Source of the DNA: Candidatus Heimdallarchaeota archaeon
Lineage (GTDB): Archaea; Asgardarchaeota; Heimdallarchaeia; JABLTI01
DNA length: 32,000 bases
Reading direction: 5' to 3'
NCBI GenBank assembly: GCA_030614005.1
Contig: JAUWKS010000016.1
Span: 1 to 32,000 of the forward strand
This document shows, piece by piece, positions 3,291-31,352 of the stretch. Position 1 is the first letter of the stretch; every line of letters starts with the position of its first letter. The position numbers and the translations under genes are program-made. The notes under the pieces are model-generated. The model was not told the DNA's origin and did not search any database. It saw only the letters and a program-made list of their open reading frames with translations.

Positions 3291-4526
3291 TTAGATAATT
3301 TCAAGTTTTTTGCCGATCTTGGTAATGATACCAACTGCCTCATCGATTGTTTCAAAATCAAAAGATGATTGACATGAAGTGCGCAACAATTCATGACCGA
3401 CTGGTGTTGCTGGAGTTCTTACAGGATTTGTATATACACTCCTTGGTGTTTCTGCAAGTAGTTCCTTGAAGAACGTGAAGGTTTTTAGCTCATCTTTTAT
3501 TATTAATGGGATAATAGGTGATGCTGAATGACCAATATTAAATCCTGCATCCACATACCCTTTCTTTAATCGATTAGCATTTGCCCATAATTTTTGACGA
3601 TGAGAATCATCCTTTTCAATAATGTCAAGAACTGCTAGTACTGTAGCTACAGCGGATGGCGGAGAACTAGCACTGAAAATCATACTTCTTGCTCTATGTT
3701 TTACCCATTGACAGGTTGTATCTGAACCAGCAATATAACCACCTATAGAAGCGAAGCTTTTAGAGAATGTGCCCATAGTAATATCTACTTTGTCTTCAAC
3801 TTTAAAATGAGCAGCAGTTCCACGACCATACGGTCCTAAAACGCCTACTGCATGAGCATCATCAACATAAACTCCTGCGCCATAAGTTTCAGCAAGTTCA
3901 GTAATTTCATCTAGCTTTGCGATATCTCCTTCCATTGAGAAGATTCCATCAGTCACAATTAGACCATATTGACCTTTAGGAATCATTTTCAAAGATTTTT
4001 CTAATGAATCCATATCATTGTGTTTATAGATGAGCTTATTTTTTTTGTTGATCTTGCTTAATCGAATGCCATCTATGATTGAAGCATGATTCTGTTCATC
4101 TGAAACCACCCAATCATCTTTTCTTAGTAAACATGAAAGTGTACCAAGGTTCGCTTGCATACCCGTTGAGAATATTACAGCGCTTTCTGTCCCTATGAAT
4201 TCTGCGAGTCGTTTCTCTAATTCAAGATGGATGTCCATTGTACCATTCAATAATCTTGAGCCGGTAGAGCCAGTACCATACTCTTCAATTGCTTTACATG
4301 CCGCTTCTTTGACTTTAGAATTAGTCGTCATTGAAAGGTAGTTGTTGCTTCCAAACATTATTGTTTCTTTATCGCCGAATTTCACTATTGGACCTTGTTC
4401 GCTGCAAAGTGCCATAAAATATGGGTATAACCCTAGTTCCTTGGCGAAATCCACTTGTGCCAATAACCCGGTTTTTGCCCGTTCCTCATATTTTTGGAAT
4501 AAAGTCATAGTAACCACTTTACTCAT
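3291..4526 (-). CDS. Alpha-oxoamine synthase family PLP enzyme (BioF/Kbl/SPT family), most similar in motifs to bacterial serine palmitoyltransferase
   Basis: GLYPYF, MFGSNNYL, GSRLLNGT, NHASII, DGIFSMEGD, VDDAH, PLP-lysine motif GTFSKS and a C-terminal RTPATP loop. Confidence 0.85.
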   Translation of the reverse strand: MSKVVTMTLFQKYEERAKTGLLAQVDFAKELGLYPYFMALCSEQGPIVKFGDKETIMFGSNNYLSMTTNSKVKEAACKAIEEYGTGSTGSRLLNGTMDIHLELEKRLAEFIGTESAVIFSTGMQANLGTLSCLLRKDDWVVSDEQNHASIIDGIRLSKINKKNKLIYKHNDMDSLEKSLKMIPKGQYGLIVTDGIFSMEGDIAKLDEITELAETYGAGVYVDDAHAVGVLGPYGRGTAAHFKVEDKVDITMGTFSKSFASIGGYIAGSDTTCQWVKHRARSMIFSASSPPSAVATVLAVLDIIEKDDSHRQKLWANANRLKKGYVDAGFNIGHSASPIIPLIIKDELKTFTFFKELLAETPRSVYTNPVRTPATPVGHELLRTSCQSSFDFETIDEAVGIITKIGKKLEII

Positions 4527-4683: not shown

Positions 4684-5304
4684 ATGTTAAAAATCGTTAT
4701 TGCAAAATGTACAGAAAAACATCTTCATTCTTACACTAAGATAATGGTACAAGCATTTAATGATAAATATCCATTTTTTTTCTCAAAAATATCTGAAAAG
4801 GATTACACTGAAATTTTATTTCAACTCAATTTGTTGGAGCTGCAATCAAATAATTTCAATGGGAAATATGTTGTCATCTATAATGAATATGTTGCAGGGG
4901 CAATTAATTTCTATATTAGCAGGCAAAAATTACAGCTTGGTAAATATTATAAGATTCTAGCAAAAAATATTGGTTATCTCAAAGCAATTAAAGTGGGGAT
5001 AATGTTATTTGGTTTTGGAGCACCGTTTAATTTTCCAATGGATACTCTATACATAGATCAAATAGGTATAAATGCAGATTTCAGGAGAAAGGGATTAGGA
5101 AAAAAACTAATGAATTTTGCACTTGAAAAAGCAATAAAATTAGGTTGTAAAAAAGTAAAGCTTGATGTTATAGCTAAAAATGAGGGGGCAATTGCACTCT
5201 ATAGCAACATAGGTTTTGTAATAACTAAAACCAATGAAACCCCATTAGGAGAAGTTTTTCTAGGAATAAGAAAATACTATTCAATGGAAAAAAAATTAAC
5301 CTAA
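4684..5304 (+). CDS. GNAT-family N-acetyltransferase
   Basis: LYIDQIGINADFRRKGLGKKLM (acetyl-CoA motif A) and N..A..LY..GF. Confidence 0.85.
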   Translation: MLKIVIAKCTEKHLHSYTKIMVQAFNDKYPFFFSKISEKDYTEILFQLNLLELQSNNFNGKYVVIYNEYVAGAINFYISRQKLQLGKYYKILAKNIGYLKAIKVGIMLFGFGAPFNFPMDTLYIDQIGINADFRRKGLGKKLMNFALEKAIKLGCKKVKLDVIAKNEGAIALYSNIGFVITKTNETPLGEVFLGIRKYYSMEKKLT

Positions 5305-16236: not shown

Positions 16237-17247
16237 ATGTTTACTCTGGGATTTGTAGGAATTGATAATGCTGGAAAAACCACTATTATTAATATTTTTT
16301 CTAAGCAGAAATTAACAAAAACCATTCCTACAGTTGGAGTAAATCTGGAACAAATCGGTTTTTCTGAAATAGATTTTGAAGTAAATATCCTGGACATGGG
16401 AGGACAAAAGCATTTCAGGTTATTGTGGGTTGACTATCTCAATACTGTTGATGCTATTCTCTACGTCATAGATTCTAGTGATCATGAGCGCTTAGATGAA
16501 ACTATAAACGAATTCAGAAAAATGCTTGTTTTAACTGAAGTTAATGCTGTTCCAATTTTAGTTTTACTTAACAAAACTGATTTGCCTAATTCCATGAATT
16601 CTATGTCTATTGGTGATAAATTATCTGTTTTTCCGGAATTAGCGAATAGAGATTGGAATATCATTGAAACAAGTGCCGTTACAACGAAAGGACTTATTGA
16701 GATGTTCAAGTGGACCTACTCAAAGGTTACCACTAATACCATTGAATTTGATGTTGAGTATAGAGAAAGTGCTGATAAAAAATACTATGCTCCTTGCCCT
16801 CTTTTATTAAAACTTAGTGATGGCAATTATTGTATAAATCATGACGAGTTCATTCAAATAAAATTGGTTCCGCTAGATTCACTCTTTAATACAGATATAC
16901 TCGAAACAGAGGATATTATTAAGGATACAATCGAAGAATTTGATAAAATGGGCGAAAAAGTTTGTTTCAATAGTATATTTGTTTCGGATAACGATGATTT
17001 AATCCACTGTGCAACAGACACAACCGACATTGAAGTTGAAAATGTCAATGCAAGTAAAGAAGAATATATTGATTCCTATAATATGATGCATCTAACTGGT
17101 GGAGTAATTTGTTCAGAATGTTTGTATAAAATACTCTTCTCAGTACTAAAACGTAAAATAAAAGCAGGAATTGAACTGCATAATGATGTAATAGAAAGTG
17201 TTAAGGAAGCCGAACAAAGACGTTCTACCGATTTAAGCAACTGCTAA
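16237..17247 (+). CDS. Arf/Arl-family small GTPase with ~170-aa C-terminal Cys/His-containing extension
   Basis: G1 GIDNAGKTT, G2 PTVG, G3 DMGGQ followed by FR.LW..Y, G4 NKTD, G5 TSAVT. GGTG lies upstream of the ATG, and an in-frame stop at 16180-16182 excludes a longer N-terminus. Confidence 0.9.
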   Translation: MFTLGFVGIDNAGKTTIINIFSKQKLTKTIPTVGVNLEQIGFSEIDFEVNILDMGGQKHFRLLWVDYLNTVDAILYVIDSSDHERLDETINEFRKMLVLTEVNAVPILVLLNKTDLPNSMNSMSIGDKLSVFPELANRDWNIIETSAVTTKGLIEMFKWTYSKVTTNTIEFDVEYRESADKKYYAPCPLLLKLSDGNYCINHDEFIQIKLVPLDSLFNTDILETEDIIKDTIEEFDKMGEKVCFNSIFVSDNDDLIHCATDTTDIEVENVNASKEEYIDSYNMMHLTGGVICSECLYKILFSVLKRKIKAGIELHNDVIESVKEAEQRRSTDLSNC

Positions 17248-17256
17248 TTGTAGTTA

Positions 17257-19143
17257 TCAGCTATGTTTTGAAATGGCGGCATCATACGCTTCTTTGTATT
17301 CCTTGATAATATTTCTCCAACTAAATAATTCAGATATCTCTCTAGCCGTTTTTCTTGCTTCGCAAACTTTTTCCTTTGACAGACTTGAATGTAGTAAAAT
17401 TACATCCGCTAATTTCTCTGCTGCACTTTCTATTGTCTCTCCTCTTCTTTTCAGCACATGTATACCTAATGCTTCAGCACTCGTTTGTTTATTTATGAGT
17501 AGACCAAAACCAGAAAGATCAGTTGTAACAGCAGGCACGCCAAGGGCAAGTGCTTCTAAAGGAGTCAAACCAAAAGGTTCGTAGACCGATGGATAAATGC
17601 CCATATCACACCCAGCAACAGCATCATAATAATCTAATTCAAGAAGATTATCTCGCTTAGATAAATAAGTTGGATAGAAAATGACTTTCACGTTATCGTC
17701 TTCATTATTTAACAGATTTTGTTGAACTAATGTTTGTAAAATAGTATCTTTTTCATTCAGTTTGAATGGGCAAACAGGTGGAGAGCCACTCGCCTCTTTA
17801 CACATATTCTTTATTTCTAGATCTAGATTCAGTAATTGATTTACTTCCTCTTTCTTAAGAAAATTTTTCAATGTTTTTTCTTCTAATTTTTTCTTATCTT
17901 CAGAACTCGAAAGAGATAACCATTCTTCAATTCTACTCATTGGTTCTCGCAGTATTGCTCTCTGACTTTTAGCTATTGCAATAATTTTTTCGACATTGGA
18001 TTTGATTCCAGCAACAGGAGCAGGAACCCAAATGAAAGCTAAAACTTGCCGAAGGTTTTCGGTACTAGTTTGCAATCGCTCATTAACTACTTTCAGCGCT
18101 GCTATGAAGGTATCAATTCCTTTGTTATGAAATTCATATCGTCCGGAAATATGAACTATTAATAAATTCTCAAAATCAAGATGGTAATAAGGACTGAAAT
18201 AAGCTTCCACAAATCGTCTAATCTTCACTCGAGATAATTGGTTTTTCTCTACTAATTCTTCTTTTCGAGCTAATTTTTCAAAATTGATGCCATTTGGTAT
18301 CACAAAATCAGGTTTTCTTCCGAGTATACATTCAGCTTCTCGAGCAACAGCTTCAGAGACTGTGATTAGTAGATCGGCTTCTTTTGCACAAATAACTTCT
18401 AACTGGTGGGTTCCTTCAACATGATATTGATACGCTTTTTGTGGAGGAATTGTTTCTCCTTTTGCCAAAAAATTATCTACTACTTCATTGATATCTTCCT
18501 CACCCATAGCGATATTTCGACCAAGTTGAGTGGCATGAGTCATAAAAACAGTAGCAACTTTCACCTTATTATGTTTCAGATATAACAATCCCGGTCCAGA
18601 AATCCATTCATGAAAGTGAGTGACAATATCTTTATTCTTAAAACGCGAGGCTTCCAACAATTGAGTGATTAACACTCCTGCAGCCCAACCAAAAGCAACC
18701 ATAGGATCAAAAACCTCAGGCATCCATAAAGAATCTATTTGAAACCAATCCCATAAAGAGCGTTTAATAAGATCTATTTTTCTTTCCGCCTTTCCTGTTA
18801 TTAGTGGAACATCCAACAAATATGAAGGATCAACCAAAAAAGTCTCCACGTTCCCACCACCTATCCATCGACCATATTTAACATCAATCCCTTCTGTTCT
18901 CACTTTACTAATTGCTTCATCGAATTCTTTCGGAAGTTCTAATTCTTCGAAATCATTTCGTGCTTTGAATGAATTATAAAGTCCAATTGCAACATAATTT
19001 CCAGGACCCAATAGTCTTTGCATTTCGGCTGCTTTGGATGCAATAACAGTATATATTCCACCGATTTTGTTGGCTATCTCATTTGAAATTTCAAAGACTA
19101 TTTGACATTCATTTTTTTGAGCAGACATAGTTTCACCACTCAT
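17257..19143 (-). CDS. Glycogen synthase, GT3 family
   Basis: FEISNEIANKIGGIYTVI, THFHEW, THATQLGR, SGRYEFHNKGID, VKVIFYPTYL and YPSVYEPFGLTP match GT3 motifs of the yeast/animal-type enzyme. Confidence 0.9.
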   Translation of the reverse strand: MSGETMSAQKNECQIVFEISNEIANKIGGIYTVIASKAAEMQRLLGPGNYVAIGLYNSFKARNDFEELELPKEFDEAISKVRTEGIDVKYGRWIGGGNVETFLVDPSYLLDVPLITGKAERKIDLIKRSLWDWFQIDSLWMPEVFDPMVAFGWAAGVLITQLLEASRFKNKDIVTHFHEWISGPGLLYLKHNKVKVATVFMTHATQLGRNIAMGEEDINEVVDNFLAKGETIPPQKAYQYHVEGTHQLEVICAKEADLLITVSEAVAREAECILGRKPDFVIPNGINFEKLARKEELVEKNQLSRVKIRRFVEAYFSPYYHLDFENLLIVHISGRYEFHNKGIDTFIAALKVVNERLQTSTENLRQVLAFIWVPAPVAGIKSNVEKIIAIAKSQRAILREPMSRIEEWLSLSSSEDKKKLEEKTLKNFLKKEEVNQLLNLDLEIKNMCKEASGSPPVCPFKLNEKDTILQTLVQQNLLNNEDDNVKVIFYPTYLSKRDNLLELDYYDAVAGCDMGIYPSVYEPFGLTPLEALALGVPAVTTDLSGFGLLINKQTSAEALGIHVLKRRGETIESAAEKLADVILLHSSLSKEKVCEARKTAREISELFSWRNIIKEYKEAYDAAISKHS

Positions 19144-30178: not shown

Positions 30179-31225
30179 TTATTGACGAGAACTTGATATT
30201 GCGTTGCGAACTTTTTCTTCATATTTGAAGAAGGCTTCTTGTATTTTTCCAAGGAATTCGCCACTTTCTTTGAACTTCTCAGAGGAGTAATCCCTGGCAC
30301 TTACAGCAAAAGCCATCATTCTTGTTGCTGTATAAACTTCATAAAAGAATATCCTATTTCCAATGTCAGGTAATTTAACCTTTGAATAATAGGTATTGTA
30401 AAAATGGTGTCTGTAACTATCCAGCTCAGGATATAATGAGAAAAAGAACAAGGTCCATCCAGCATCTAAAGCAGGGTCGCCTAAACGTGAATATTCCCAA
30501 TCAATCAAGCCGGTTACTTTTGCGCCTTTGACCATAATATTTCTCGGTTGTGGATCACCATGAAGAAGAGAGAATCTATCCAATTTGAGTTGCTTCTTGA
30601 AAGACATAAACCATTTACCAAGCGGATCGACATAATATCCTGCCTTCCTTAAGAAATTCAGAGAGCGATTAATATCATTCAAAATATATTTATCGTAAGG
30701 AATTTCTTCTTTAATGATTCCTTTTGGTGTTTCCATACCGTAATTCTTGAAACGGTAATTATGTAGATTAACCAGATATTGCACAAATCCCGTTATTACT
30801 TTTTCAAAATCTGCTGGGGTGTATGTTTTGATAGCTTGCTCAAGTGTTACACCGGGAATTCGTTCAATGATTGAAAATGGATAACCCAATATTTTTGAGT
30901 CTACTTCTAAGATATAGGGTTTGGGAACGGGTATTGGTGCTCCTTGTAATCGACCCAATTTATTAAATTCTCTTTGAGGTTTTAATGAATCATGTTTTTC
31001 AGGGTAAATTCTTAGTACTACACTCTTTCTTATTTCTTGTCCCGAAAGAATAAACTTGATCTCAAAGAAAAATACTTTATTTGACATTCCAGTTTGAATT
31101 CGTTCAGGGGTATCTATGGAAATTAATTGTGAATTCTTTGGAATAAGTAACCATATCTTACCTGACTCTATAAGGTAATTCTTTAATCTTTGTTGGATTT
31201 CAACGACAGGTAATAATGGTTTCAT
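30179..31225 (-). CDS. Aminoglycoside phosphotransferase / choline kinase-like (APH) family protein
   Basis: VLRIYP, PVPKPY, IERIPG, HGDPQPRNIM (Brenner motif) and IDWEYSRLGDPALD. The ATG at 31225 has GAGG upstream. Confidence 0.85.
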   Translation of the reverse strand: MKPLLPVVEIQQRLKNYLIESGKIWLLIPKNSQLISIDTPERIQTGMSNKVFFFEIKFILSGQEIRKSVVLRIYPEKHDSLKPQREFNKLGRLQGAPIPVPKPYILEVDSKILGYPFSIIERIPGVTLEQAIKTYTPADFEKVITGFVQYLVNLHNYRFKNYGMETPKGIIKEEIPYDKYILNDINRSLNFLRKAGYYVDPLGKWFMSFKKQLKLDRFSLLHGDPQPRNIMVKGAKVTGLIDWEYSRLGDPALDAGWTLFFFSLYPELDSYRHHFYNTYYSKVKLPDIGNRIFFYEVYTATRMMAFAVSARDYSSEKFKESGEFLGKIQEAFFKYEEKVRNAISSSRQ

Positions 31226-31352
31226 AATCCTCGTTTTCCTGAGTAATATCTTTTGTAAATTGTCAATAAACAAATTTTGATTTGCAGAATAATTCTTCTT
31301 CTTACATTTATTTTATACTTGTTATTTGAAGTTTAGGGTGAGTGAAAAAACT

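Follow-up and report, generated by a model that had tools for sequence, protein, structure and literature searches.

We report that a gene on the minus strand of a 32,000-nucleotide stretch of a Candidatus Heimdallarchaeota genome (contig JAUWKS010000016.1, positions 1 to 32,000; hereafter the window) encodes an alpha-oxoamine synthase dependent on pyridoxal 5'-phosphate (PLP). Judging from its sequence, its place in the tree and the gene context of its orthologs, this synthase is rather likely to be a serine palmitoyltransferase (SPT)-like long-chain-base synthase, and the organism probably makes a sphingoid-type long-chain base. The gene itself is confirmed and intact. Its 411-aa product matches the family over the full length (Pfam Aminotran_1_2, E=5e-58; NCBIfam NF047600, an SPT model, E=8e-145), which by these values is far beyond chance. 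The current view assigns sphingolipids to eukaryotes and to some bacteria. If archaea do make such bases by a pathway of their own, it would be the first sphingolipid-type pathway in Archaea, and an unrecognised source of sphingoid lipids that are now credited to bacteria in marine sediments. The assignment of sedimentary sphingolipid biomarkers would change as well, and an amide-lipid building block would be added to ether-lipid organisms, which bears on mixed membranes in eukaryogenesis.

The enzyme we propose would be a soluble, bacterial-type PLP enzyme, presumably a homodimer, with an SPT-like action. Its amino acid substrate, most likely L-serine, would bind as an external aldimine to the PLP that Lys256 carries. 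Decarboxylative condensation with a long-chain acyl-CoA would yield a 3-keto long-chain base, for instance 3-ketodihydrosphingosine. The next step, reduction to a sphinganine-type amino alcohol, would fall to a KdsR-like short-chain reductase, for which this genome would supply a putative partner, and N-acylation might follow.

Phylogenetic placement and conserved residues

The gene and its motifs lie as follows.

3291..4526 including the stop codon, minus strand: coding sequence of the PLP-dependent alpha-oxoamine synthase (open reading frame and translation, 411 aa, archaeal SPT-like clade)
4416..4433, minus strand: N-terminal GLYPYF (from the alignment, the structural paper PMC10196870 and the signature columns)
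4335..4358, minus strand: MFGSNNYL, whose Asn61 aligns with Asn52 of S. multivorum SPT
3756..3773, minus strand: PLP-binding motif GTFSKS, with the Lys256 codon at 3759-3761, aligned with catalytic Lys244 of S. multivorum SPT
3381..3428, minus strand: C-terminal loop NPVRTPATP...LLR (NPVRTPATP at 3402-3428, LLR at 3381-3389)

An alternative start lies at 4508 (Met7). Since the majority of homologs begin at Met7, the true start may be 4508, not 4526.

The tree came from a careful IQ-TREE run under LG+C20 with 111 rows, drawn from 80 named genome loci, same-class relatives and annotated references. The references comprised Kbl of E. coli, B. thuringiensis (adjoining tdh), S. aureus and Sinorhizobium; BioF of E. 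coli K-12 and of two Bacillales biotin operons; HemA; the Roseomonas SPT that lies beside acyl carrier protein; and the Parabacteroides SPT. Scores above the NCBIfam SPT cut-offs were reached by the bacterial rows from Pseudopedobacter (721 against 640 bits), Parabacteroides (684 against 640) and Roseomonas (625 against 500). The synthase fell inside an archaeal clade of 21 rows (support 100/100), in which Heimdall- and Thermoplasmatales-labelled rows are mixed. The sister of this clade is a group of 78 bacterial SPT-type rows (91/92) that includes all validated SPTs. The two together form a joint clade with support 100/99, which leaves Kbl, BioF and HemA outside. Approximately unbiased (AU) tests rejected a grouping of the archaeal clade with Kbl (p=1e-4) and with BioF (p=1e-4). 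The original prediction, which had proposed an SPT-like enzyme, had set branching with BioF or Kbl beforehand as the result that would speak against it. Such branching was not seen, because the tree places both families outside the joint clade and the AU tests reject both groupings.

We read individual residues from the alignment to S. multivorum SPT, following its structural paper (PMC10196870). Each residue named there as a contact to PLP or serine is conserved: N52, G80, S81, H138, S185, D210, H213, T241, S243, K244, F272 and A274 correspond to N61, G89, S90, H147, S197, D222, H225, T253, S255, K256, F284 and A286. A catalytic lysine in GTFSKS together with the His/Asp/His set that holds PLP marks the protein as a fold-type I alpha-oxoamine synthase. 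GTFSKS is unchanged across 22 archaeal homologs. Asn52, the counterpart of Asn61, belongs to a water-mediated network around the serine hydroxyl, and Tyr27, the residue of S. multivorum SPT that aligns with Tyr36 of GLYPYF, helps to form the wall of the acyl pocket (PMC10196870). Each motif that had been noted earlier (GTFSKS, NPVRTPATP, LLR, GLYPYF, MFGSNNYL and SEQ, the last at residues 42-44) was recovered by coordinate. Of the RPPATP loop, which had been brought in from the Sphingomonas enzyme, the arginine is not general to SPTs: NPVRTPATP is present here, but S. multivorum SPT has Val at this position.

We also defined 11 SPT-signature columns, in which a residue is common to at least 85% of the bacterial SPT clade and absent from nine Kbl, BioF, HemA and own-paralog rows. 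The synthase has 10 of these 11 SPT-clade-specific residues and 2 of 8 Kbl-specific residues. Pro35 of GLYPYF is one of the former, as are Asn367 and Leu380 in the C-terminal loop; the position of Leu380 is Arg in 9/9 Kbl, BioF, HemA and own-paralog rows. Because such residues are expected from the tree position, they support the placement and are no proof of activity.

The top NCBIfam match was NF047600 (Bacteroidota/CFB-type SPT) with 482 bits. Among solved structures, S. multivorum SPT (8guh/3a2b) scored highest with 381 bits, and lower scores were obtained for Thermus BioF/KBL (271), Kbl (239-251), S. paucimobilis SPT (247) and human SPTLC2 (193). No membrane-like hydrophobic stretch was found in the 411-aa synthase (maximum KD19 = 1.55).

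Gene neighbourhoods and partner genes

The loci of the archaeal clade contain candidate genes for the steps on either side of the synthase. Of 24 loci, 10 have a KdsR-like short-chain dehydrogenase/reductase (SDR) immediately beside the synthase and 8 have a long-chain acyl-CoA ligase directly upstream, so that 13 have one or both next to it. The ligases match long-chain fatty-acid-CoA ligases best. One synthase-adjacent archaeal SDR gave 325 bits on the KdsR model NF049977, compared with 333 for a Bacteroidia SDR adjoining a true Spt, and all these KdsR-like SDRs score under the cut-off of 400 bits. Parts of a cassette of ligase, SPT-like synthase and KdsR-like SDR appear in all seven Thermoplasmatales-type loci (L029, L041, L042 and L137-L140, where for the last four the search covered only ligase, SDR and epimerase). 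In L029, L041 and L042 the cassette is extended by a divergent sulfotransferase together with one to three transferases of the hexapeptide-repeat type. An HpnA/OleD-like (CerR-like) epimerase lies within a few kb in L029 and L042 and, by hidden Markov model (HMM), in L139. The Thermoplasmatales-type cassette could serve to make a long-chain-base lipid that is N-acylated or sulfated.

Bacterial loci are built differently downstream of Spt. A 375-aa acyltransferase without a Pfam or NCBIfam family lies directly downstream in 28/69 and 35/76 loci, and an epimerase-like reductase lies near Spt in 14/69 and 19/76. From position and published descriptions (PMC11087976, PMC11334938), without Caulobacter proteins in the comparison, we presume that the acyltransferase is bCerS and the reductase CerR. 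The order in a Bacteroidia locus is Spt, KdsR, acyl-CoA ligase, one short open reading frame and the presumed bCerS. None of the archaeal-clade loci has a 375-aa acyltransferase adjoining the synthase. Five loci of the same genus (L017-L019, L025 and L026) have the synthase followed by an Atg22-like transporter of the major facilitator superfamily (MFS), an arrangement absent from the window; in L018, L019, L025 and L026, pdxS/pdxT and a 480-500-aa PALP-family enzyme come next after this transporter.

The source genome (G000) has 3.6 Mb, 33.5% GC and a completeness of 90%. It holds three strong homologs of long-chain acyl-CoA ligases, which makes acyl-CoA supply plausible. The search for acyl-CoA supply and downstream ceramide enzymes that had been suggested at the outset was successful for the first, with these three homologs, but it gave no credible ceramide synthase. 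An HMM made from 28 genes directly downstream of bacterial Spt found one full-length match in the genome, a remote GNAT-type protein (C119:7559-8596, 131 bits). We rejected it as support for ceramide synthesis: it is about 22% identical, occurs in 2/31 relatives and has no synthase nearby.

The cassette in which this C119 family always stands consists of an MFS transporter, a weak AMP-binding protein and the GNAT-like protein, with a second MFS transporter in 2 of the 4 loci seen. In this genome it forms a four-gene operon on the minus strand (C119:6282-11355, L131): an MFS_2 transporter, a 455-aa protein, a 345-aa GNAT-like protein and an MFS_1 transporter. The 455-aa protein has no family match, and a homolog of it has a weak AMP-binding match. 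The first three genes stand in the same order in one Heimdall contig and two metagenome contigs, and named members of the family include Thorarchaeota and Chloroflexi. The operon may be a module for lysolipid uptake and re-acylation. An APH-like kinase lies near it, and the window has an APH-family kinase with a weak choline/ethanolamine-kinase match (30179-31273, minus strand); both APH-type kinases could act on lipid head groups.

In the window, the synthase appears monocistronic, between a pilin-type surface protein and one divergent neighbour.

4684..5304, plus strand: generic GNAT acetyltransferase, 206 aa (Pfam Acetyltransf_1), context only

On NCBIfam this GNAT came closest to PaiA, at 68 bits where the cut-off is 250. 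We rejected it as a candidate N-acyltransferase partner, since it is a generic GNAT and is syntenic only in some genomes of the genus. The Asgard origin that had been suspected from the sequence was supported: the window contains an Arf-family GTPase, TiaS and an archaeal pilin-type protein, and the nearest named homologs are from Heimdallarchaeota metagenome-assembled genomes (MAGs). The Arf-family small GTPase (16237-17247, plus strand; Pfam Arf, 150 bits) has a C-terminal extension of about 170 aa and belongs to the eukaryotic signature proteins that are typical of Asgard archaea. Next to it, a 628-aa protein (17257-19143, minus strand) matches the eukaryote-type glycogen synthase family PF05693 with 371 bits.

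Points against an SPT-like function and alternative functions

Several observations weigh against an SPT-like function. The score of 482 bits is under the curated NF047600 cut-off of 640, and the scores on two other SPT models are also under their cut-offs (364 vs 500 for NF047599, 302 vs 670 for NF047603). The archaeal clade branches beside the group of validated SPTs and not within it, so substrates could have diverged at the base of the archaeal clade. A profile of the archaeal clade gives the proteobacterial SPT 310 bits, no higher than Kbl with 323. In this genome the synthase stands alone. The best KdsR-like SDR lies 39 kb off on the same contig (C112:43544-44608) and is ambiguous between the KdsR model and a generic SDR model (181 vs 184 bits). 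Among 31 relatives searched with the KdsR model, an SDR adjoins the synthase only in G009, of the same genus; the genes flanking that pair match contig C94 of this genome, not C112, and do not tell the order of events. Co-occurrence of SDR and synthase is weak, because the 335-aa SDR type is present also in relatives without the synthase. A ceramide synthase of the TLC/Lag1 type (PF03798) was not found in the genome, at its completeness of 90%, and the one bCerS-like protein is only remotely similar and belongs to a cassette of another kind. The gene is also patchy in Asgard archaea. With a threshold of at least 650 bits on the profile of the archaeal clade, clear orthologs were counted in about 29 Asgard species genomes out of 399 (~7%). 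Finally, a metagenomic survey of the Black Sea found no archaeal MAG with Spt-like proteins (PMC11334938).

Some of these points would equally suit an enzyme with the same chemistry and other substrates, which we regard as unlikely. Such an enzyme would use Gly, Ala or Thr, or a medium-chain, branched or isoprenoid-derived acyl-CoA, and its product would be a non-classical amino-ketone or amino-alcohol, for example a 1-deoxy base or a signalling molecule. The sister position and the score below the equivalog cut-off are consistent with this, and three pocket positions are changed from S. multivorum SPT (A79 -> T88, F83 -> L92 and M271 -> I283). Bacterial SPT itself takes Gly, Ala and homoserine at low efficiency (PMC10196870). 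Moreover, the sulfotransferase and hexapeptide transferases of the Thermoplasmatales-type cassettes are not in known sphingolipid loci. On the other hand, conservation extends to the residues that surround the hydroxyl and carboxylate groups of serine, and the ligases next to the orthologs have long-chain fatty-acid-CoA ligases as their best matches.

A housekeeping role as Kbl (glycine C-acetyltransferase) or BioF (8-amino-7-oxononanoate synthase) is improbable. JGI records do name homologs '8-amino-7-oxononanoate synthase', the next NCBIfam scores of the synthase were those on TIGR01825 (BioF/Kbl-related, 405 bits), Kbl (389) and BioF (360), and Thermus BioF/KBL was the second-best solved relative. 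However, all these scores are below the cut-offs: 389 vs 460 and 307 vs 493 on Kbl models, and 360 vs 426 on the BioF model TIGR00858. Bona fide bacterial SPTs reach 399-428 bits on the Kbl and BioF models, so the secondary scores of the synthase are not evidence for Kbl. The AU tests and the residue counts given above speak against both families. In addition, the genome has a second paralog (C34:17190-18449), 40% identical to the synthase, which scores highest on Kbl-type models and groups with Kbl (100/95). An SDR-type Tdh, sharing 51% identity with the Bacillus enzyme encoded beside kbl, is found 2.6 kb away from this paralog. Judged by homology and location, the Kbl role in this genome is covered by this paralog. 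No biotin or threonine-dehydrogenase genes had been noticed near the synthase, and indeed BioB, BioD and Tdh are not in the window. For the genome as a whole, E. coli queries for BioB and BioD were without match and BioA was matched only by generic aminotransferases; since the genome is 90% complete, absence of the biotin pathway is not proven.

A cysteate fatty acyltransferase (CFAT) that makes a capnine-type sulfonolipid base is highly improbable: the sulfotransferase in the Thermoplasmatales-type cassettes hints at sulfur-bearing lipids in those relatives, but the window has no sulfotransferase, and solved CFATs gave 223-229 bits vs 381 for SPT. Sulfotransferase products are sulfate esters, not sulfonates, which also counts against a CFAT. 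CFAT belongs to the same superfamily as SPT, but Asn126 of the synthase matches the SPT-type Asn117, a local feature absent from CFAT (PMC13692747).

The SPT-like identity proposed in the original prediction is therefore kept with qualification. It is favoured by the tree, the AU tests, the signature residues and the best solved relative, and is held back by the score below the SPT cut-off and by the sister position. Genome context likewise gives a mixed answer: the Kbl role is taken by a paralog, but the cassette and a credible ceramide synthase were not found here.

Distribution, eukaryotic enzymes and known systems

The Asgard orthologs fall nearly all within two families of one class. Metagenomes of marine sediments and cold seeps, from at least four studies, also contain DNA of the synthase gene. 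On a wider scale, it is conceivable, though we stop short of calling it likely, that two Heimdallarchaeia families and the Thermoplasmatales-labelled group make sphingoid bases via a module of their own, with ligase, SPT-like synthase and KdsR-like reductase, without bCerS and CerR, and with fatty acids that are scavenged or self-made.

An SPT in an organism close to the eukaryote root had been flagged as notable. We used two giant-virus contigs as the reference for eukaryote-type SPT, one with an LCB2-LCB1 fusion and one with a single LCB2. The fusion (L222:1148-3775, a giant-virus MAG contig in IMG/VR) is an 875-aa single-chain LCB2-LCB1 SPT, similar in layout to the coccolithovirus SPT. The LCB1 domain had a branch too long to place in the tree. 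The giant-virus LCB2 rows lie outside the prokaryotic SPT clade (split support 100/98) and group weakly (88/68), on long branches, with a third Heimdall paralog that is absent from this genome. This third alpha-oxoamine synthase paralog, seen in L023 and L024 (genomes G024 and G016, of the same class), stands just outside the prokaryotic SPT clade. Profile scores showed no special affinity between Asgard and LCB2 sequences, and the features of a eukaryotic LCB2-type enzyme are missing from the synthase, which has neither an LCB2 grouping in the tree nor a hydrophobic segment. The tree gives no special tie to LCB2, with the limit that an AU test does not reject a grouping of the archaeal clade with LCB2 (p=0.128). 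Its patchy occurrence in Asgard archaea and its prokaryotic look argue for lateral spread over a direct eukaryotic ancestor. The picture is that of an SPT relative of prokaryote type passed laterally between archaea, not of the immediate forerunner of the eukaryotic enzyme. In the literature we searched, no paper had both 'serine palmitoyltransferase' and 'Asgard', and no archaeal SPT was found. A 2026 Nature study gives a pathway-level Asgard link only, for eukaryotic sphingolipid metabolism (PMC12872458).

We compared the synthase with known systems. Its closest counterpart is the Bacteroidota-type SPT of S. multivorum (8GUH/3A2B; NF047600), to which it is similar in length and predicted solubility; GTFSKS, the N-terminal GxYPYF and every contact named for PLP and serine are common to both. 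It differs in being only 44-54% identical to bacterial members and in belonging to a separate archaeal sister clade, in having Arg370 for Val in the C-terminal loop, and in T88, L92 and I283 for A79, F83 and M271. The order from SPT to KdsR (BT_0972-type, NF049977) that is known from Bacteroides and eukaryotes is similar to that of the archaeal orthologs, which are often directly followed by a KdsR-like SDR; unlike in the Bacteroides pathway, the two genes are 39 kb apart here, and archaeal loci are without the presumed bCerS gene. With the Caulobacter-type Spt-bCerS-CerR module the archaeal loci share the Spt-type first enzyme. No archaeal-clade locus has the adjoining acyltransferase of that module, and three Thermoplasmatales-type loci have a CerR-like epimerase of the HpnA/OleD type. 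Kbl and Thermus BioF/KBL have the same fold and reaction class and are 36-42% identical to the synthase, but the synthase has just the two Kbl signature residues, has no Tdh beside its gene, and is separated from Kbl by trees and AU tests. Eukaryotic LCB1/LCB2 (SPTLC1/2) share the reaction, as predicted here, and the PLP-lysine motif type GTF[ST]KS. In contrast to what is proposed for the synthase, they form a membrane-bound heteromer; human SPTLC2 reaches 193 bits, and LCB2 lies outside the prokaryotic SPT clade to whose archaeal branch the synthase belongs.

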